Part shown: positions 2,575 to 64,000 of the stretch, piece after piece
Layout of the letters: each line of letters begins with the position of its first letter
Numbering within the stretch: the stretch's first letter is position 1
The notes under the pieces: model-generated
Seen by the model: the letters and a program-made list of their open reading frames with translations, nothing else
Told to the model about the DNA's origin: nothing
Database searches by the model: none
Assembly: GCA_015066395.1 (NCBI GenBank)
Contig: SVOL01000006.1
Location: 10,218-74,217 of the forward strand
Length of the DNA: 64,000 bases
Origin: Oscillospiraceae bacterium
Lineage (GTDB): Bacteria; Bacillota; Clostridia; Oscillospirales; Acutalibacteraceae
Direction: 5' to 3'
Position numbers and translations under genes: made by a program

Positions 2575-3538
2575 TCAATTCACTAAATGTAGAATCGAGA
2601 CACACTTTCCCACCTCTGTCAGTCACCCTGAAAACCTTTGGTGCGATACCGACAGACGGCACAAAACAAAAGTGTTTTATAGCGCCCGACCGCAGTATCT
2701 CCATAGCAGCCGAACGGTCGTATACCTCATCGACCGACCCGAGATGAACCGTCGTAAAGATATCCACGCCCGAAAAGAAAGCGCGCCTTACTTCTATTGC
2801 CTCTTCCTTACTGAATATCTCATCAAACGCCACGACCTGCGGATTAAGCGTCCGCACCGCCATTTCTATACCCTTAGCCTTCTCGACCGAGCTTATAACA
2901 TCGCAATTAGGACCGAGATCGTTACCGGGAATGCCGTTATTAACGGCGGCGATCTCGCCTCTTGTATCGACGACTGCAACTCTTCTCCGCTCGGTCAGCG
3001 AGCCCGTTGATACAAGTCTTATCGCATCACGCAAAAGTGTTGTTTTACCGCTTGACGGCGGACCGGCTATCAGCAATCCGCCGCACAAAAAATTAGCGAT
3101 CGGCAGAGCACAACCTTTATACTCTGTGGCGAGACGGATGTTAATAGACGAAATCGAGCGGAACGAGGAAATTTTTCCGTCCTCATAAATAGCTGTAGCC
3201 GCAAGACCTGCCCTGCAACCGTTTTTAAGCGTTATGTAACCGTTTTTGATCTGCTGATTGTAGGCATAGACCGACGAATTGCACATATTGCGGAAGGTCG
3301 TGTTTATATCCTCCGAGCTCACAATGTAAAGTCCCTGCTGCAACAAGTGGCAAAGCGAACCGCCAACCGAAACATAGAGATTTTCTCCACCCACGGTAAC
3401 ACTCAACGGTCTGCCCGAACGCAATCGTATCTCAGCCGCACCGAAAACCGCTCTTGTCGGAAGTTTCGACAGTATGTCCGCTATGGGTTTTGGGAAATAA
3501 TCAAGCGTTTCATTAAAAACTTCATACTTGTTTTTCAT
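2564..3538 (-). CDS. spoIIIAA: stage III sporulation protein AA (ATPase)
   Basis: 324 aa. Walker A motif GPPSSGKTTLLRD. First gene of the spoIIIA operon. Confidence 0.9.
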   Translation of the reverse strand: MKNKYEVFNETLDYFPKPIADILSKLPTRAVFGAAEIRLRSGRPLSVTVGGENLYVSVGGSLCHLLQQGLYIVSSEDINTTFRNMCNSSVYAYNQQIKNGYITLKNGCRAGLAATAIYEDGKISSFRSISSINIRLATEYKGCALPIANFLCGGLLIAGPPSSGKTTLLRDAIRLVSTGSLTERRRVAVVDTRGEIAAVNNGIPGNDLGPNCDVISSVEKAKGIEMAVRTLNPQVVAFDEIFSKEEAIEVRRAFFSGVDIFTTVHLGSVDEVYDRSAAMEILRSGAIKHFCFVPSVGIAPKVFRVTDRGGKVCLDSTFSELNVG

Positions 3539-8491: not shown

Positions 8492-8510
8492 TTCCTTAAA
8501 ACAATTTAAT

Positions 8511-8697
8511 ATTTCCTGCCCTGTGCGCGAATGCTTTCCTTTATAACCCTACAAGCTACAAATCGGGAGTCAGGTCTCCGACAGTGGGTATGCAGGCCTC
8601 CCGCACTTTGCGGACGTTGGAAGCACAAAGCTGTTGGGATGACACCCACCTGCTATTCGCAGGTTATTATCGGTAGTTGTACGGCAGGGCGGGATGT
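8511..8697 (+). ncRNA. ssrS: candidate 6S-like structured RNA
   Basis: About 187 nt with no credible ORF. 5' CCTGCCCTG pairs with 3' CAGGGCGGG, and GCGAAT with ATTCGC, forming a closing stem. Internal GTGGGT/ACCCAC pairing and small hairpins. ACACCCACCT on the 3' side resembles 6S RNAs I recall. Immediately followed by a terminator. Confidence 0.4.
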
Positions 8698-8698
8698 T

Positions 8699-8735
8699 AA
8701 AAAAGACGCAAGTTTTACTTGCGTCTTTTTTATTT
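8699..8735. terminator. bidirectional intrinsic terminator
   Basis: AAAAAAGACGCAAGT ttt ACTTGCGTCTTTTTT. Serves the ncRNA candidate (+) and ybaK (-). Confidence 0.8.
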
Positions 8736-32666: not shown

Positions 32667-32743
32667 GGGCCTTTAGCTCAGTTGGTTAGAGCACCCGGCT
32701 CATAACCGGTAGGTCCCGGGTTCAAGTCCCTGAAGGCCCACCA
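32667..32743 (+). tRNA. tRNA with CAT anticodon (elongator Met or lysidine-type Ile2; resembles Ile2)
   Basis: 77 nt cloverleaf. Acceptor GGGCCTT/AAGGCCC, loop CT-CAT-AA, encoded CCA. The 5' half GGGCCTTTAGCTCAGTTGGTTAGAGC resembles Ile2(CAU) tRNAs. One mismatch each in the anticodon and T stems. Confidence 0.85.
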
Positions 32744-32749
32744 CATTAT

Positions 32750-32824
32750 AGGGGTATGGTGTCAACGGTAGCACACCGGTCTCCAAAACCGTTTGTGAGG
32801 GTTCGAATCCTTCTACCCCTGCCA
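32750..32824 (+). tRNA. tRNA-Trp (CCA)
   Basis: Acceptor AGGGGTA/TACCCCT, anticodon loop CT-CCA-AA, T-loop GGTTCGAATCC, encoded CCA. Confidence 0.9.
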
Positions 32825-32826
32825 AA

Positions 32827-32865
32827 AAGAAACGACAATTTTCGACAGAAGATTGTCGTTTCTTT
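32827..32865 (+). terminator. intrinsic terminator after tRNA-Trp
   Basis: 12-bp stem AGAAACGACAAT / ATTGTCGTTTCT followed by a T-run. Confidence 0.75.
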
Positions 32866-32958
32866 TTGTTCTTTTCACTTTTCTCTTTTCGTTCTTCTCT
32901 CTTCTCTCAAATTGTCGTTTCCAGAGAAAAGATAAGAGAGAAAAGAGAAGAGAAAAGG
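32866..32958. repeat. long imperfect inverted repeat of a polypyrimidine tract and its polypurine complement
   Basis: CT-rich 32871-32907 pairs with GA-rich 32923-32958 (about 30 of 36 positions including G-T). The loop carries a second copy of ATTGTCGTTTC (32911-32921), which duplicates the terminator 3' arm. Confidence 0.7.
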
Positions 32959-32974
32959 CAGCTTTGCTTTGCAA

Positions 32975-33089
32975 GTGATATTGGGCTTCGCCCAGTTTTG
33001 GCGGCGAATATAATATCACTGAAACCGTAGGTTTCAATATCACATTTTGCGTAACAAAATATATCACTCCGCCGAAGACGGAATATCAC
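32975..33089. repeat. heptamer-punctuated hairpin array A (GTGATAT x1, ATATCAC x4)
   Basis: ATATCAC at 33013, 33037, 33061 and 33083, with an inverted copy at 32975. These are separated by unrelated hairpins at 32982-32994, 33020-33036, 33044-33060 and 33068-33082. Confidence 0.85.
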
Positions 33090-33207
33090 TTAAAACTAAC
33101 GGTTATGTAAGAATTCGAATCCATACGCAAAAACGCCAAAATAACTGTATATCGTTATACCGACTTTTCACGCATTTTTTCAGGGCAAAGCAACAAAAAT
33201 CACCCCC

Positions 33208-36784: not shown

Positions 36785-37999
36785 TTATTTAAATATAAAC
36801 TTTACAAATCGCTTTTTACCGATTTTCATCACATCATTATTATGCAACACGGTGTTTACATCGTCCCCGGCAACTTTATTGCTATTTAGTTGTACTCCTC
36901 CCTGTTTTACAAGACGCAAAAACTCACTTCTGCTCTTTACATATCCTTCAGAAATCAACTCCGGTACAACTTCTGACAGTGTTGTGATGTTGTTTTGTAT
37001 GAACAACTCCGGTATATCATCAGGGATAGCCTTTTTTGCAAACGCATTTTCGTAGTATAAAATCGCCTTTTGCACATTTTCCTCTGAATGATATAATCCC
37101 GTAATTACTTCTGCTAACCTCAACTTAATATCACGAGGATTTGCGCCGTTTTCCAATTCCTTACGAATGCCGTCAACGGTATCAGGGTGTTCATCGGTCG
37201 CAAGTTCAAAGTATTTAATAATCAAACTATCCGGAATTTCCATAACCTTTTTGAACATCACTTCGGGCAGCTCGTTGACGCCGATATAATTTCCAAGACT
37301 TTTGCTCATTTTCTCTACACCATCAATGCCTTCTAAAATCGGCACAAACAGTGCCACTTGCTGTTCCTGCCCCATTGATTTTTGAAGAGTACGACCCATA
37401 AGCACATTGAAGGTTTGATCGGTGCCACCAAGTTCAACGTCAGCTTTAAGTTCAACAGAATCATACGCCTGCATCAAAGGATAAAAGAATTCGTGTATGC
37501 CGATGGGAACATTGTTTCTGTAGCGGTTTTGAAAATCATCTCTTTCCAGCATCCGTGCTACAGTGGTTGTTGCGCCCAACTTAAGAACGTCTTCAAAACA
37601 TAGTTTTGACAACCACTCGCTATTGAAACGCACTATTGTCTTTTCTTTGTTGATCACCTTAAAAATCTGCTCACAGTAAGTAACGGCGTTTTCTTTAACC
37701 TGTTCGTCTGTAAGTGCTACGCGACCTTTGGATTTACCGGTAGGATCACCGATTTTACCAGTGAAGTCTCCTATGACGATTACCGCCAGGTGACCAAGTT
37801 CCTGCATCTGCCGAATTTTTCGTAATACGACAGCATGACCTAAATGGATATCAGGTGCCGACGGGTCAAGGCCCAATTTGATAATGAGGGGTTGGTTTTT
37901 TTCGATTGATCTTTCGAGTTTGGTAAACAGTTCATCCTCGCTTACACAGGTTTGCACACCTTTACAAATGATGCGCAGTTGTTCTTGTGCGGATAGCAT
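36785..37999 (-). CDS. tyrS: tyrosine--tRNA ligase
   Basis: 404 aa. HLGH (PDIHLGHAV) and KMSKS motifs. C-terminal S4-like domain. Tyr T-box upstream. Confidence 0.95.
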   Translation of the reverse strand: MLSAQEQLRIICKGVQTCVSEDELFTKLERSIEKNQPLIIKLGLDPSAPDIHLGHAVVLRKIRQMQELGHLAVIVIGDFTGKIGDPTGKSKGRVALTDEQVKENAVTYCEQIFKVINKEKTIVRFNSEWLSKLCFEDVLKLGATTTVARMLERDDFQNRYRNNVPIGIHEFFYPLMQAYDSVELKADVELGGTDQTFNVLMGRTLQKSMGQEQQVALFVPILEGIDGVEKMSKSLGNYIGVNELPEVMFKKVMEIPDSLIIKYFELATDEHPDTVDGIRKELENGANPRDIKLRLAEVITGLYHSEENVQKAILYYENAFAKKAIPDDIPELFIQNNITTLSEVVPELISEGYVKSRSEFLRLVKQGGVQLNSNKVAGDDVNTVLHNNDVMKIGKKRFVKFIFK

Positions 38000-38059: not shown

Positions 38060-38345
38060 ACAAAAAACTCCCGTCCTTTGTTTCCAAAAGGACGAGAGTG
38101 ACTCCCGTGTTACCACCTTAAGTTCATAGACAACTCACATTATCTACCTCACAGAGTACGGCCGAAGCGATACTCCTGCACTTGATTACGGTGTGCTTTC
38201 CGTCGTAGCCTACTCCTAATTGTTTTGGTACGCAGCTCCAAGATGTATTCACATTTCATATCCACGAGCCTCTCATCAGCCGGCATCTTTCTGTTTGGAA
38301 TCAGAAATGCTACTATTTCTTTTCATAGCCTTTCTTATGCATAAC
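38060..38345 (-). promoter_or_regulatory. T-box riboswitch leader, Tyr (UAC) specifier
   Basis: On the minus strand: UGAUGAGAG GA/AG-box region. GAA-UAC-A specifier loop (UAC = 38247-38245). T-box AAGGUGGUAACACGGGAG (38120-38102). Terminator CUCUCGUCCUUU...AAAGGACGGGAG plus a U-run (38098-38062). Confidence 0.9.
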
Positions 38346-56956: not shown

Positions 56957-57302
56957 GGGGATGTAAAGGTTTCGACAGGGATTTTGAACTGCGATAAGCA
57001 TGCAGCGTTACGGTTACGCTTTGAAGACCGAAATTTTAAAAATAACTGACAAAAATACAGTTGCTTTTGCAGCTTAATTAAGCTGCCGTTCTGCCGCTGA
57101 GTACCGCGGCGGCGGTTAGAGCGTCATTTTGCGGTGAACGTGAGCAGATGAGTTTCTCGGCTCTGCCACGGCGAGAGGATACCAAGCGCTAAAGCCTTTT
57201 TGTCGGCGTTAGTGTAAGGGAATCTCAAATGACAAAATAAGCATGTAGAAAGTTGCAGGAATGAATTTTTGGACGCGGGTTCGATTCCCGCCATCTCCAC
57301 CA
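56957..57302 (+). ncRNA. ssrA: tmRNA
   Basis: 5' GGGGATGTAAAGGTTTCGAC and 3' GGACGCGGGTTCGATTCCCGCCATCTCCACCA tRNA-like ends. Tag frame ...GAC AAA AAT ACA GTT GCT TTT GCA GCT TAA (…DKNTVAFAA). Confidence 0.95.
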
Positions 57303-57337
57303 AAATCGACAGGGTTCTTCTGAGCCTTGTCGATTTT
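57302..57337. terminator. terminator after tmRNA
   Basis: AAAATCGACAGGG ttcttctgag CCTTGTCGATTTT. Confidence 0.7.
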
Positions 57338-57429
57338 ACTTTTTACCTCTTCACTCTTCACTTTTAACTATTTTCTGCTTGTCGACCTTCGGCAAGGAAT
57401 ATTCTCGCGTTTCCTGCATAGAATTACTA

Positions 57430-60019: not shown

Positions 60020-60095
<76 letters not shown>

Positions 60096-60096
60096 G

Positions 60097-60126
60097 AAAA
60101 AAGCACTTCGTAAGAAGTGCTTTTTT
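60097..60126 (+). terminator. intrinsic terminator after tRNA-Ala
   Basis: AAAAAAGCACTTC gtaa GAAGTGCTTTTTT. Confidence 0.8.
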
Positions 60127-60130
60127 CAAT

Positions 60131-60294
60131 TAAATCCACCCCTTCGGGTGGAATAAATCGTCTCATACGATGAAATCCCCTGTGGGGATGAAATCCGCCT
60201 AGACTGCGGAATAGCGGATTTAATTTCATCTGAGTGAAACGAAGATTTCATCAGCGATAGCTGATTTCATCCTTGCGTCAGCAAGGATTTCATT
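60131..60294. repeat. heptamer/nonamer-punctuated hairpin array B with dyad polarity switch (GATGAAATC | GATTTCATC)
   Basis: GATGAAATC at 60169 and 60187. Reverse complement GATTTCATC at 60244 and 60263, plus one-mismatch copies at 60222 and 60286. At least 7 unrelated hairpins lie between them. Central 8-bp hairpin at 60191-60221. Confidence 0.85.
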
Positions 60295-60324
60295 ATTTAT
60301 GCAAAGAGTCAAATTTTACTCAAA

Positions 60325-60356
60325 CAAAAAAGCAGAGCTTTCGCTCTGCTTTTTTA
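60325..60356. terminator. bidirectional terminator (GH16 lipoprotein gene 3' end)
   Basis: AAAAAAGCAGAGC tttc GCTCTGCTTTTTT. Confidence 0.8.
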
Positions 60357-60364
60357 GTTTACTT

Positions 60365-62296
60365 TTAGTGGAAGTACATCTTCTGTCCCTTCAACTGATA
60401 AACGTGAACATAGTCAATAATAAACTTGTTGGATTCGGTCCACTCCTTATTACCGTCAGGCACAACGAATTCTCTTGCCGAGAAGCCGACAGCCATACTA
60501 AGTCTCAAGAATGCCGGTGTCGAGAAGGCCGACTTTGTAACCTCAAGCTCAGCCTTTCTTGCATTCTCAACAGTAGTGCCAAGGCTTGCGGCCGACGAAG
60601 CGTTACCGAATACCATAGCAGCGGTTGCATAGTCGTAACGAGAGGTAACCTTACCGTCGATGGTAAAGTAAAGCTCGTTAGCATCCCAACCGTAACCGAA
60701 GGTGTGGAAATCAAGATAGAAGCCTCTGTTATCAGCATTGTACTGAATGTTAGACTTGTTAAATGCGTAACCGTTAGGAATTCTGAAGTTGTACTTGGAC
60801 AAAACGGTACGGATACCGGTGGTGTTGATCCAAGCGAAGCTGTTCTGGAGTGTCAAGTGACCAGCGCCGTAGGATTCGTTAACGTCGATCTCCATACGTC
60901 CAAGGCCCTTATCGAGGTACTGATTATCAACCCACAAAGAGGTCCAGAAGCCCTGACCGAAGGGTTTGAGACAGCTGGTCTCAACATAACCGTACTGGAA
61001 AGTCATAATATCTTTAGTGGTCAAATGGCCGCCATAGTAATACTTATCGTCATAGGCAGCGCAAATATAAAGCTTGCCGTCCTTGACATAGTTGTTGTTG
61101 AGTTCCTTAGAAGCACGGGCAGGTGTACGTCCATTAAGACCGGTCGAATAGATGGTGCTGTCACGGCCATAGGATACTATCCACTTCTTAGTGTTGATAG
61201 CACTGCCGTCAAAATCGTCACCCCATGTGAGGGTGTAATAATTATCGCGGTTATAATTCGAGATAACGTTCTTATAGTTACCGACAACGGTTGAAGCGTC
61301 AGTTAAGGCGAGCGCTCCGGCGTTAACCATCTTAGTAAACTCGGAAACAGCCATTGCTGTAGCGGCAGGGCTTCCGCCGTTTAAGAAGATCTTATTGCCT
61401 GCAACCTTAATAGTGTACTGATTTTTATCAGTAATAGCAGGACGTCCTGCACGGTCACAATCGCCGATAACAACCTCGTATGTATACTCGGTCTTGGTCT
61501 TGGTCTTATCAAGTGAATTGATGGAGTTTACATAGTTCTTATAGTCAGTTGCAGTCTCGCAGTTACTCCAGGTCTTGCCGTAATACATATTGATCATTTC
61601 CTGGGTAAAGGTGGGAGCCGTCGCGTCAGTTGCTTCCTTCAAGGTAACACCAAGCTTGGAGGTCAAGGTCTTCTGGAGTTCTTCAAGCTGAATTCTTACC
61701 AAGTAAGACATATTGTACTGAGGAACAACCAAAGTATACTTGTTATCAAGCTTAACACCGTTAACTGTAACGCCGGCAGTGCCTTCAACGGGCTTAACAT
61801 AAGAATATACAACACCGCTCAAAACAGCATCAGGCTTCAAAATGTTTGCGATAAAGTATGCAACAGCCTGCTTGATAGCAGCATCAGAGAAGCCGGTGAT
61901 AACAATGTCACCGCTGTTGGCATAGATGATGTAGTCATCATTGCTGCCGCCGCCCAAATTTGTAAGAGCAGCTACTGCTTCAGCAACGATAGGACGATTA
62001 CAATCACCAATGATGATTTCGGTGGCATCGCTGGTCTCGCTGTCAAAAGAGCAGGAAACCTCTATGTTGTCCCAAGTGTTCATCACATTGTATACATCCA
62101 ATGCGAGTGTGGTTCTGTACTCCGAGCCGGCAGGAACGATAACGCAAAATTCACCGTTCGTTATCGGCACAACACTGCTTGTTCCGGCAGGGTCGTTGGA
62201 AGCTGCACTCGAAGTATCGCCGCCTTTGCCGCCCGAACAAGCGGTAAACAGAACTAAAACCACAAGTAATAATGCAACAAGTCTGATTTTCTTCAT
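60365..62296 (-). CDS. lipoprotein with a C-terminal GH16 (beta-glucanase/laminarinase-type) catalytic domain
   Basis: Lipobox LFTAC-SGG. EIDVNES matches the GH16 ExDxxE catalytic motif. Two N-terminal repeats of an IGDC...G module. Confidence 0.8.
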   Translation of the reverse strand: MKKIRLVALLLVVLVLFTACSGGKGGDTSSAASNDPAGTSSVVPITNGEFCVIVPAGSEYRTTLALDVYNVMNTWDNIEVSCSFDSETSDATEIIIGDCNRPIVAEAVAALTNLGGGSNDDYIIYANSGDIVITGFSDAAIKQAVAYFIANILKPDAVLSGVVYSYVKPVEGTAGVTVNGVKLDNKYTLVVPQYNMSYLVRIQLEELQKTLTSKLGVTLKEATDATAPTFTQEMINMYYGKTWSNCETATDYKNYVNSINSLDKTKTKTEYTYEVVIGDCDRAGRPAITDKNQYTIKVAGNKIFLNGGSPAATAMAVSEFTKMVNAGALALTDASTVVGNYKNVISNYNRDNYYTLTWGDDFDGSAINTKKWIVSYGRDSTIYSTGLNGRTPARASKELNNNYVKDGKLYICAAYDDKYYYGGHLTTKDIMTFQYGYVETSCLKPFGQGFWTSLWVDNQYLDKGLGRMEIDVNESYGAGHLTLQNSFAWINTTGIRTVLSKYNFRIPNGYAFNKSNIQYNADNRGFYLDFHTFGYGWDANELYFTIDGKVTSRYDYATAAMVFGNASSAASLGTTVENARKAELEVTKSAFSTPAFLRLSMAVGFSAREFVVPDGNKEWTESNKFIIDYVHVYQLKGQKMYFH

Positions 62297-62380
62297 AATT
62301 AACTCCTTTTAAAATATTGCAAAATAACTTTACAAGTATATATTACCACAACACGAACAAAAACTCAATAACAAAATGCA

Positions 62381-62415
62381 AGAAAAAGCACCGTTTCCGG
62401 TGCTTTTTCTTAAAA
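62381..62415. terminator. terminator after the dockerin-GH16 gene
   Basis: AAGAAAAAGCACCG tttc CGGTGCTTTTTCTT. Confidence 0.75.
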
Positions 62416-62419
62416 AATT

Positions 62420-64000
62420 TTAACCTACAAGTTTGTTTTTGCCAACCAGGTAACCGTTAAGAGTTGCGAGGTCTTCTTCAGTAATGAGACCGTCGCCTGT
62501 AACCTCAGCCGCGCCAAGATCCATATTCTTAAAGTCATACTTGGTCCAGCCGGCAAGATATCTTGCAACGTATGTTGCGTCAAGAGCATCAACATTGCCG
62601 TCACCGTTAACGTCACCACGCTGATTGCTTGTTCCGAGATAGTAAATCGTCTGGTTATCGTACTGATAAACATGAACGTAGTCAACAACGAACTTGTTAG
62701 ACTCCTGCCACTCTGCGGCATCGTCTTCAATTACGTAGTTCCTTGTTGCAAAACCGACAGCCATACTGAGTCGGATGTAAGCAGGAACCGCAAAACCGGA
62801 TGCCGAGAGCTGAGGCTCAATCTCCTGCAACAAAGCTGCATCGAGCGCTGCAGTCGAATACTCAGTTGTTGTACCGGTAAGATCCTTGGTAGCGACAGGC
62901 TCGGTTGCATAGTTGTAACTATGTGTCACCTTACCGTCAACTGTAAACAAGAGCTTATCTGCATCCCATGCATAACCGAAGGTGTGGAAGTCAAGATGGA
63001 AGCCTCTGGTATCTTTGTTATAGGTGTAGTTGGTACCATAGAAGCCGACGTTCTGCTTTAAGAACTTCTTATAAGTCTTACCAACGAATGTACGACCGGT
63101 AGTATTAAGCCATGTGATAGAGTTCTGGAGAGTTACGCTGCCTGAGCCGTAGGACTCGTTAACGTCGATCTCCATACGTGCATAAGCGTCATTTGCAAGA
63201 CCTTCGTTATCGACCCACATCGAAGTCCACAAGCCCTGTCCAAGAGGCTTGAGACAGCTGGTCTCAACATAACCGTACTGAATTCTCATGGTATTTCTGG
63301 TAGACAAATGTCCGCCGTAATAATACTCATCATCATAGGTAGCAGCTATATAAAGCTTGCCGTCCTGAATGTAGTTGTTATTGAGTTCCTTAGAAGCACG
63401 CGCAGGCAAACGTTCGTTAAGACCATCAGAGTAGATGGTACTGTCACGTCCGTAAGATACAGCCCACTTACCGGTGTCGATAGAAGAACCATCGAAATCG
63501 TCAGCCCATTTCAGGGTGTAATAGTTGTTGCGATCATAAGCACCGATTGCATCGTAATAGTCATAAGAGGCAGTCGAAGCATCGGTAAGGGTAAGATCGC
63601 CGGTATTTACCATCTTAGTAAACTCGGAAACCGCCATTGCGGTAGCGGCAGGGCTTCCGCCGTTGAGGAATATCTTATTGCCGGCAACCTTGATGGTGTA
63701 CTCGTCAGTATCGGTGATCACCGGGCACTGATAACGAGCGCAATCACCGATAACGATTTCATAAACAGTTTCAGTACTCGACTTCGCTGTATTATAGGAA
63801 GCGAGTTTTGCAACATAAGCCTGATATTCAGCTGCAGTATCACAGTTCTTCCAGCCCTGTGCTTCGAAGACGTTTATATCTGCCTGAGTAAAGGTTGTAG
63901 ACTTAGTATCAGTCTTTTCAGTAAGGGTATAACCCGCCTTTTCGCTGATAGCGGCAGTCAGTTTATCAAGCTGAATTCTTACCAAGTAAGACATATTGTA
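62420..64000 (-). CDS. GH16 paralog with a C-terminal type I dockerin (5' end beyond window)
   Basis: Same architecture as the upstream paralog (EIDVNES). Additional GDVNGDGNVDALD...EVTGDGLITEED dual Ca-binding dockerin repeats. The reading frame stays open to position 64000. Confidence 0.85.
   Translation of the reverse strand, partial: YNMSYLVRIQLDKLTAAISEKAGYTLTEKTDTKSTTFTQADINVFEAQGWKNCDTAAEYQAYVAKLASYNTAKSSTETVYEIVIGDCARYQCPVITDTDEYTIKVAGNKIFLNGGSPAATAMAVSEFTKMVNTGDLTLTDASTASYDYYDAIGAYDRNNYYTLKWADDFDGSSIDTGKWAVSYGRDSTIYSDGLNERLPARASKELNNNYIQDGKLYIAATYDDEYYYGGHLSTRNTMRIQYGYVETSCLKPLGQGLWTSMWVDNEGLANDAYARMEIDVNESYGSGSVTLQNSITWLNTTGRTFVGKTYKKFLKQNVGFYGTNYTYNKDTRGFHLDFHTFGYAWDADKLLFTVDGKVTHSYNYATEPVATKDLTGTTTEYSTAALDAALLQEIEPQLSASGFAVPAYIRLSMAVGFATRNYVIEDDAAEWQESNKFVVDYVHVYQYDNQTIYYLGTSNQRGDVNGDGNVDALDATYVARYLAGWTKYDFKNMDLGAAEVTGDGLITEEDLATLNGYLVGKNKLVG

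Follow-up and report, generated by a model that had tools for sequence, protein, structure and literature searches.

By its sequence and predicted fold, the heptamer/hairpin array behind the tRNA-Trp gene is clearly best read as a sub-threshold yet homologous member of an already catalogued family, Gut-1 (Rfam RF01706). On balance we favour the interpretation that a dispersed, non-coding structured repeat, probably mobile and with Gut-1 as its core, is present here in one copy, of which the array forms the distal half. Family membership is established by homology; the architecture, the upkeep of all helices through compensatory changes, and near-identical copies across species in unrelated flanks are likewise observed.

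The array behind tRNA-Trp and the Gut-1 family

Within the window, by which we mean the whole 64-kb stretch of DNA that was analysed, the plus strand behind tRNA-Trp carries ATATCAC at positions 33013, 33037, 33061 and 33083, with periods of 24, 24 and 22 nt, and the reverse complement GTGATAT at 32975. Perfect hairpins are formed by TGGGC-ttc-GCCCA (32982-32994), TGAAACC-gta-GGTTTCA (33020-33036), ATTTTG-cgtaa-CAAAAT (33044-33060) and TCCG-ccgaaga-CGGA (33068-33082). The sequence and a pattern search bear out the preliminary description, made from the sequence alone, in each of these respects, and also its view that the arrangement is not random: the heptamer occurs 20 times in the window as against 6.7 +/- 2.6 in shuffles, none of 100 shuffles reaches 20, and five of the 20 copies are packed into 115 nt at the tRNA-Trp locus. 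In a k-mer cluster scan of the whole window only the tRNA-Trp and tRNA-Ala array loci stand out. Beyond the arrays ATATCAC is found 15 times in the window (about 6.7 are expected for the window as a whole), with a strand split of 12 to 3 and in sense as well as antisense orientation to genes.

The setting immediately 3′ of a tRNA-Trp terminator had also been described correctly, the tRNA being identified by ARAGORN and the terminator by a terminator scan. The parts of the tRNA-Trp copy are as follows.

32667-32743: tRNA-Met, preceding tRNA-Trp (ARAGORN)
32750-32824, plus strand: tRNA-Trp (CCA), the gene upstream of the element (ARAGORN, Rfam tRNA hits)
About 32826-32866, plus strand: intrinsic terminator, with an A-tract, a 16-20 bp stem and a T-tract (terminator scan)
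32867-32960, plus strand: hairpin some 95 nt long, one arm CT-rich and the other GA-rich (fold, k-mer scan)
32961-32994, plus strand: remnant of the proximal (tRNA-sense) Gut-1 half (sequence, alignment to canonical modules)
32995-33012, plus strand: centre, GTTTTGGCGGCGAATATA (alignment)
33013-33089, minus strand: distal inverted Gut-1 array, with four heptamers (ATATCAC on plus, GUGAUAU on minus) and three hairpins
33090-33146, plus strand: conserved tail, TTAAAACTAACGGTTATGTAAGAATTCGAATCCATACGCAAAAACGCC (BLAST alignments to L302, L267 and L376 reach 33146)

The minus strand at 33008-33091 matches RF01706 with 44.4 bits (E 5.5e-8) over model positions 1-77 of 77, with three stems formed. Two further arrays that match the full model are found at a second copy, behind tRNA-Ala.

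60020-60095: tRNA-Ala (ARAGORN)
60097-60127, plus strand: tRNA-Ala terminator, the left border of the second copy (fold, sequence)
60127-60199, plus strand: proximal Gut-1-like array with ATGAAAT-type heptamers (Rfam 43.2 bits, E 1.6e-7, full model)
60218-60295, minus strand: distal inverted Gut-1-like array, with four ATTTCAT on plus (Rfam 43.8 bits, E 1.1e-7, full model)
60326-60355: terminator of the convergent gene, after the distal array (terminator scan)

The window thus holds two element loci and three full-model arrays in 64 kb. These matches come from a permissive Rfam search; the curated gathering cut-off of RF01706 is 50 bits, and at that threshold the search finds no Gut-1 in the window, as 44.4, 43.2 and 43.8 bits all fall below it. 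The E-values of the three full-length hits lie between 5e-8 and 2e-7, and many homologous copies exceed the cut-off (among them L041 with 58.2 bits, the two halves of L263 with 59.2 and 52.0 bits, and L336 from Faecousia intestinalis CLA-AA-H192 with 70.2 bits). Positions 32963-33146 are 84-89% identical to the copies L282, L302 and L267, which are from other species and stand behind tRNA-Gln, tRNA-Ser and others, and the alignable module family of these three includes L263, L274, L284 and L329, all of which score above 50 bits. The Gut-1 consensus has three hairpins separated by GUGAAAU, of which the window carries the variants GUGAUAU (tRNA-Trp) and AUGAAAU (tRNA-Ala). The proposal that the tRNA-Trp and tRNA-Ala arrays are of one kind is upheld by their matching this single Rfam family, and the consensus proposed for them, AT[A/T]TCA[C/T], is right in that it is the reverse complement of the Gut-1 heptamer GUGAAAU.

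Gut-1 was first described in human-gut environmental DNA, with 43 representatives and in no sequenced organism, and was judged likely to be an RNA and not cis-regulatory (Weinberg et al. 2010, Genome Biol 11:R31; PMC2864571). The original Stockholm alignment covers the half located behind a predicted terminator, and some of its entries follow a tRNA 3′ end; the seed uses this half whereas the tRNA-Trp array is the inverted distal one. The seats behind predicted terminators, including those of tRNAs, and the hosts among gut-associated Clostridia agree with that alignment. Compared with the 2010 paper, Gut-1 is now found in about 90 MAGs, one cultured isolate and some phages, and as part of a larger composite element. 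Rfam files the family as type 'Gene; sRNA'. A literature search on the heptamer or on tRNA-downstream hairpin repeats returned nothing relevant beyond the 2010 paper.

Other features of the window include three further RNA loci.

8510-8699, plus strand: 6S RNA gene (Rfam above cut-off)
38085-38335, minus strand: T-box leader, upstream of a tyrosyl-tRNA synthetase-like ORF at 36785-37999, minus strand (Rfam above cut-off)
56957-57302: tmRNA, followed within 57303-57375 by a terminator and the CT-rich tract ttacctcttcactcttcacttttaac

The CT-rich tract behind the tmRNA is similar to the CT-rich arm at tRNA-Trp. The window tmRNA is not followed by a Gut-1 array, whereas in L334 a module directly follows the tmRNA. 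Coding in the window is mostly on the minus strand (about 46 kb as against 12 kb), with the tRNAs, tmRNA and 6S RNA on the plus strand, and at 60365-63991 a pair of minus-strand ORFs encodes GH16 domains, accompanied in one ORF by a type I dockerin, which suggests a Ruminococcus-like organism that bears a cellulosome.

Architecture of the module and covariation of its helices

Alignments of related copies define a composite module of about 190-380 bp, which starts with an intrinsic terminator, very frequently that of a tRNA gene, and continues through a proximal array, a centre and an inverted distal array to a tail. The proximal array has the sense of the upstream gene and rather degenerate heptamers (GTTATAT, GTGATAT and similar), and the distal array is inverted with sharply conserved ATWTCAC heptamers; as the sampled loci were selected by a pattern of four exact heptamers, the invariance of the heptamer in this sample is partly circular. 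An inverted partner is present for 83 of 119 arrays. A simple terminator scan at the arrays finds a terminator in the same direction at 14 of 98 and in the opposite direction at 21 of 98, and the idea that a terminator precedes every array was rejected on these counts; it is only the proximal side of the composite module that abuts a terminator.

At tRNA-Trp the terminator forms the left border of the element. It is homologous to the terminators of related copies behind other tRNAs and aligns with GAAAACGACAAGTTTCGACAGAAACTTGTCGTTTTC in L282, L302, L267, L334 and L310. The hairpin that follows (32867-32960) is in the alignment a window-specific block standing where canonical copies have the first two units of the proximal array, and the 3′ arm of the terminator (32852-32862) reappears in its loop, ATTGTCGTTTC (32911-32921). 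Judged by this alignment, the CT/GA-rich hairpin has replaced part of the proximal half. The remnant of that half consists of TTGC-ttt-GCAA (32964-32974), GTGATAT (32975-32981) and TGGGC-ttc-GCCCA (32982-32994), and gives a weak partial Gut-1 hit of 19 bits on the plus strand at 32958-32996. In a metagenome copy, L002, the loop of the last of these hairpins (L002 positions about 165-176) carries a 1-nt deletion giving TGGGCTTGCCCA, the array being otherwise identical to that of the window. The conserved tail at the other end of the module includes a stretch resembling a tRNA T-loop; an Rfam search returned no tRNA hit in the tail.

The proximal array is closed by a long-range helix, P1, of 10-12 bp. 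The 10 nt before the first distal heptamer complement the proximal start, 90-99 nt upstream, in 35 of 109 arrays where 0.5 would be expected; the P1 sequence pairs vary between subfamilies, and RNAalifold predicts the helix along with the hairpins. At the tRNA-Ala locus, where the two arrays are convergent, TTAAATCC (60130-60137) can pair with GGATTTAA (60216-60223) in the position of P1. The tRNA-Trp copy retains the 3′ strand, GGCGAATATA (33003-33012), and lacks the 5′ partner TATATTCGCC, so that the 3′ strand is left unpaired because the CT/GA hairpin replaces the first two proximal units. Register-specific pairing of heptamers between the halves was considered and rejected, as the G/A and C/T variants of L259 mismatch in the nested register.

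Across 33 modules 96.2% of the cells are paired, compared with 78.7% in shuffles and about 40% in slid controls, and both-sided changes occur in 26 of 38 pairs, a number reached by none of 500 shuffles. All helices of the module are maintained by compensatory changes, and in the stems of the family it is the pairing rather than the sequence that is conserved. The intervening hairpins had been taken to be unrelated, which is not so: each is a conserved position within a longer element, and other genomes have the same hairpins with compensatory changes. A scheme of repeated insertion with a 7-bp target duplication was rejected since these hairpins are found again, position for position, in other genomes. 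The 328 distinct hairpins hold 1951 Watson-Crick pairs, the pair closing the loop is C-G in 241 of 272 cases (89%), and the loops on the ATWTCAC strand are GNA or GNNA, with GAA, GCA and GTA the commonest, together with GNNA tetraloops.

These data also bear on the suggestion that the array might be bound as DNA in the manner of iterons, that is, as sites for a double-stranded-DNA-binding protein acting in replication, partition or regulation of the downstream gene. The window heptamers are spaced by about two helical turns, and the array lies 130-250 nt upstream of a promoter-like site which is followed by a 116-aa ORF with no Pfam match. Across the family, however, the heptamer period varies from 17 to 27 nt, stems co-vary so that their pairing is conserved, and the neighbouring genes are unrelated from locus to locus with no replication gene family enriched. 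Iterons are direct repeats in constant phase accompanied by a rep gene, and no rep gene is found near the window array; nor did any plasmid or phage replicon match. In other species the homologues of the 116-aa protein (50-72% identity) are encoded in different neighbourhoods that lack arrays, and a comparison of orthologous loci through this ORF was dropped because these homologues lie elsewhere and are array-free. Iteron-like binding thus fits poorly, and we regard it as very improbable.

Dispersal of the element and its genomic surroundings

A scan of a genome collection for four heptamers identified at least 120 loci, and 96 of the 120 listed carry true hairpin arrays. Nearly all hosts among these 96 listed loci are gut or rumen Clostridia, and they include Acutalibacteraceae, Oscillospiraceae, Ruminococcus, Christensenellaceae and the cultured Faecousia intestinalis; single MAGs contribute several loci each. 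The seat just behind a tRNA terminator, inferred earlier from the window, recurs: in 26 of the 96 listed loci the array is less than 350 nt downstream of a tRNA, with more than 14 tRNA identities represented, a spacing of 131-133 nt between the end of the tRNA and the distal array is met with repeatedly, and there are further examples in the original seed alignment.

Between species the element is more alike than its surroundings. Pairs from different species are 98.3% identical over 345 nt (L327/L357), 95.7% over 327 nt (L286/L344), 96.3% over 245 nt (L265/L297), 96.7% over 239 nt (L296/L320) and 93.9% over 376 nt (L262/L360), and in these pairs the element alone aligns across 8 kb, the flanks being unrelated. 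One partner of L265/L297 is in a tRNA-Trp context and the other in a non-tRNA context, with no tRNA within about 2.6 kb of it and the nearest a tRNA-Gln at 735-809. Tandem copies occur in L327, L275 and L350, and the L357 copy sits between the two arms of a host terminator. From this distribution we infer that the element is probably mobile. High identity between species could also arise if a functional RNA were under very strong purifying selection, but the tmRNA is much less conserved, being only 67-74% identical between the window and L334 or L352 where the array is 85-86% identical between the same genomes. Other findings stand against our preferred reading, that of a probably mobile repeat: the borders defined by between-species comparisons give no consistent target-site duplication and no clear terminal inverted repeat, two metagenome scans for an empty site and an alternative allele recovered nothing, and no mobilising enzyme was found. 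The outermost heptamers are inverted (AGTKATAT...ATATCACT).

The window locus itself differs between strains. Its flanks are housekeeping genes common to all strains, contigs with an identical pyruvate kinase or an identical 116-aa protein diverge exactly at the module (L007, L003), and many assemblies break there. According to the preliminary description, absence of the locus from close relatives with otherwise conserved synteny, taken together with lack of expression and of genome-wide enrichment, would speak against a real element; the outcome is divided, as L003 and L007 do differ here despite identical flanking proteins, and the unit is strongly enriched across the family.

The position directly after the CCA end of many different tRNAs raises the further possibility that the arrays are recombination-site furniture, namely arm-type or transposase sites of integrative elements that target tRNA 3′ ends, the window copies being scars or miniature derivatives. 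It is consistent with this that tandem modules in L326 are split by a tRNA-3′-end-like fragment and a second terminator copy, that the L265 copy keeps 'GCCA', that arrays stand at phage/host gene junctions in L020 and L224/L226, and that an IS110-family transposase adjoins the L377 array. However, Phage_integrase is not among the Pfam families matched by at least two of the 150 nearest ORFs, both halves of the module are on the same side of the tRNA, and the tail is element-specific and not a copy of the local tRNA; copies that follow different tRNAs all conserve it, and so it does not represent a duplicated att core. Sites of a tyrosine integrase would be expected with an integrase and a duplicated tRNA core, and we find no enriched integrase, no such core and housekeeping flanks. 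Compensatory changes in the stems would be unexpected for sites bound as double-stranded DNA, and arrays are rare in viruses, with about 8 true arrays in 50 hits from a complete scan of 2.9 million viral contigs. We therefore consider a recombination site improbable. A phage att, cos or pac site, suggested by three viral contigs, was rejected in view of the few viral arrays and the housekeeping neighbours in genomes. Among the few viral copies, one phage has two solitary ones flanking a peptidase gene beside the portal gene. Searches of GenBank phages and of PLSDB plasmids gave no useful matches.

The 150 nearest ORFs match 169 Pfam families, with no enrichment. Several neighbouring features may be recorded. 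Behind some modules there is a conserved block, ATATGTAGGGGTTCGAACACATAGG...GGGGTTCGAATTTGT...CCA, that resembles a decayed tRNA 3′ end (L326 at about 2300-2800, L284 at about 3200-3310 and the contig end of L007, where the window locus has its alternative allele); after the block in L326 the same terminator occurs a second time, and then a further module. Palindromes resembling REP, GTAGGGGCG...CGCCCCTAC, adjoin Gut-1 arrays in L306, L321 and L204, which suggests a second repeat family in the same intergenic niches. A gene for a small four-helix-bundle protein, 23S_rRNA_IVP (PF05635), adjoins a module in L339 (3296-3778), and two of the 150 neighbouring ORFs match this family; judged by eye only, a similar gene (MAESKLRELSTDFAVKIIKLCDD...) lies beside the module in the element of L224/L226/L247, and in L253 (4585-4953) one lies near an array-free homologue of the 116-aa ORF. 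The transposase in L377 (312-1346; DEDD_Tnp_IS110 and Transposase_20) is about 450 nt from the array and is a single case; the IS110 family is known to target palindromic repeats.

Among known repeats the closest likeness is to REP, BIME and REPIN elements of Proteobacteria, which share short extragenic palindromes with a conserved short single-stranded motif at the hairpin foot, inverted doublets, seats after genes or terminators, many dispersed copies and strain variation. Dispersed extragenic inverted doublets are indeed seen here, in the three arrays of the window and the paired arrays of the family. In REP, however, copies within a genome conserve the palindrome sequence itself and a RAYT transposase has been identified, whereas each position of a Gut-1 array has its own stem and only the 7-nt linkers are shared. 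In place of a palindrome with 5′ GTAG and a RAYT we find the shared motif RTGAWAT and stems that differ by position, and there is no Y1 transposase among the enriched neighbour families of the 150 ORFs. BOX of Streptococcus pneumoniae and further small repeats of Firmicutes (RUP, Bcr1, ERIC-like) are modular non-coding elements of 100-400 bp with variable numbers of internal units, strongly structured and intergenic, whose mobilising machinery is unknown or acts in trans. Gut-1 modules resemble these in being modular, structured and intergenic, but they show no similarity to them in sequence, are tied much more tightly to terminators and tRNA 3′ ends, and have a heptamer/hairpin periodicity of their own. 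CRISPR and type III toxin-antitoxin repeats, which are identical over more than 20 nt, do not correspond, as only 7 nt are repeated here and there are no cas or toxin genes nearby.

Acting strand and the case for an RNA

The evidence on which strand acts, and as which molecule, conflicts. With DNA folding parameters both strands of 33010-33092 beat 200 of 200 shuffles (z -3.5 and -3.8), whereas with RNA parameters the two strands of the window array are far apart: the minus strand, each of whose stems is lengthened into the heptamers by U.G and A-U pairs, folds much the better at -24.4 kcal/mol (z -3.5), and the plus strand reaches -12.2 kcal/mol (z -1.4). On the other hand, single mismatches in the stems, counted in the Rfam orientation, are A.C in 21 cases and G.T (G.U) in 8, and wobble pairs therefore favour the ATWTCAC strand. 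Solitary arrays are co-oriented with the upstream gene in 20 cases as against 9, and lie 16-40 nt past the co-oriented gene and ahead of the next one; paired arrays have no orientation bias relative to genes (36 versus 28).

A genuine structured RNA, either an sRNA or a 3′-trailer or intercistronic RNA whose GUGAWAU linkers are bound by an RNA-binding protein or RNase, for example to stabilise or process upstream transcripts, is a serious rival to the mobile repeat, even if we think it unlikely. The strong covariation and the better folding of the minus-strand RNA are both in its favour, as is the fact that the seed alignment and the best-scoring hits represent the gene-sense half directly behind the terminator. 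The placing of solitary arrays, which includes the interval between the phage portal and peptidase genes, is also in its favour, and their co-orientation with the upstream gene would suit a role in mRNA and counts against the preferred reading. However, the element is multi-copy, with inverted pairs the rule and tandem copies present, and the paired arrays are indifferent to gene orientation. The proximal half is downstream of a strong terminator, no conserved promoter was found, and A.C mismatches exceed G.U in the Rfam orientation. Identities of 94-98% across species in unrelated contexts are likewise unlike those of ordinary sRNA genes. Inside the window array there is a promoter-like match on the minus strand at 33010-33037 (TTGAAA, 16 nt, TATTAT, with a TG extension), built from hairpin A, the last heptamer and the centre and pointing into the proximal half; its -10-like part is common to GTGATAT-type modules, the -35 part not being universal.

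In the model that we prefer, the element would spread as a non-autonomous unit, either mobile or exchanged horizontally, much as REP/REPIN, BOX or MITE do. Its invariant 7-nt linkers and its hairpins, whose GNA/GNNA loops are closed by C-G, would jointly constitute a cis-signal that is read single-stranded by a factor encoded elsewhere; the single-stranded form could be DNA during replication or transfer, or read-through RNA. A seat behind a terminator would keep the copy harmless, and any effect on the host, such as insulation or protection of 3′ ends, would be secondary. The loops provide a lead as to the acting molecule. DNA mini-hairpins of the types d(cGNAg) and d(cGNNAg) are reportedly unusually stable (Hirao, Yoshizawa, Bevilacqua and co-workers), and the same C-G-closed GNA/GNNA loops are present on the ATWTCAC strand of Gut-1 arrays, whereas an RNA in the Rfam orientation would carry the complementary UNC loops. 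We treat this likeness as a lead to single-stranded DNA as the acting molecule, not as a family assignment. A bolder proposal, which we hold only tentatively, is that Gut-1 is not an sRNA gene at all and might instead be the core, acting in cis, of non-autonomous mobile elements that make up a class so far unrecognised in gut and rumen Clostridia. Such elements would home to sites 3′ of intrinsic terminators and tRNAs and be read by an enzyme as folded single-stranded DNA, in the form of cGNAg/cGNNAg mini-hairpins that the invariant 7-nt motif separates and that are arranged as inverted doublets.

Assignment to RF01706 explains the array behind tRNA-Trp, and it bears on a family that has been an orphan in Rfam since 2010. 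What is newly added is that many genomes of Oscillospirales type, at least one of them from a cultured strain, contain Gut-1, that the motif makes up one half of a larger module which is linked to terminators and has a covarying long-range helix, and that near-identical copies stand in unrelated contexts and different species; the composite terminator/tRNA-linked architecture and the apparent mobility are, it appears, not described in the literature found. Its function thereby becomes testable in a culturable organism, and annotators would do well to treat Gut-1 matches as repeat elements rather than as single-copy sRNA genes. Should the element prove mobile, it would provide a new case, in Firmicutes, of non-coding DNA whose spread is targeted to terminators or tRNA ends.
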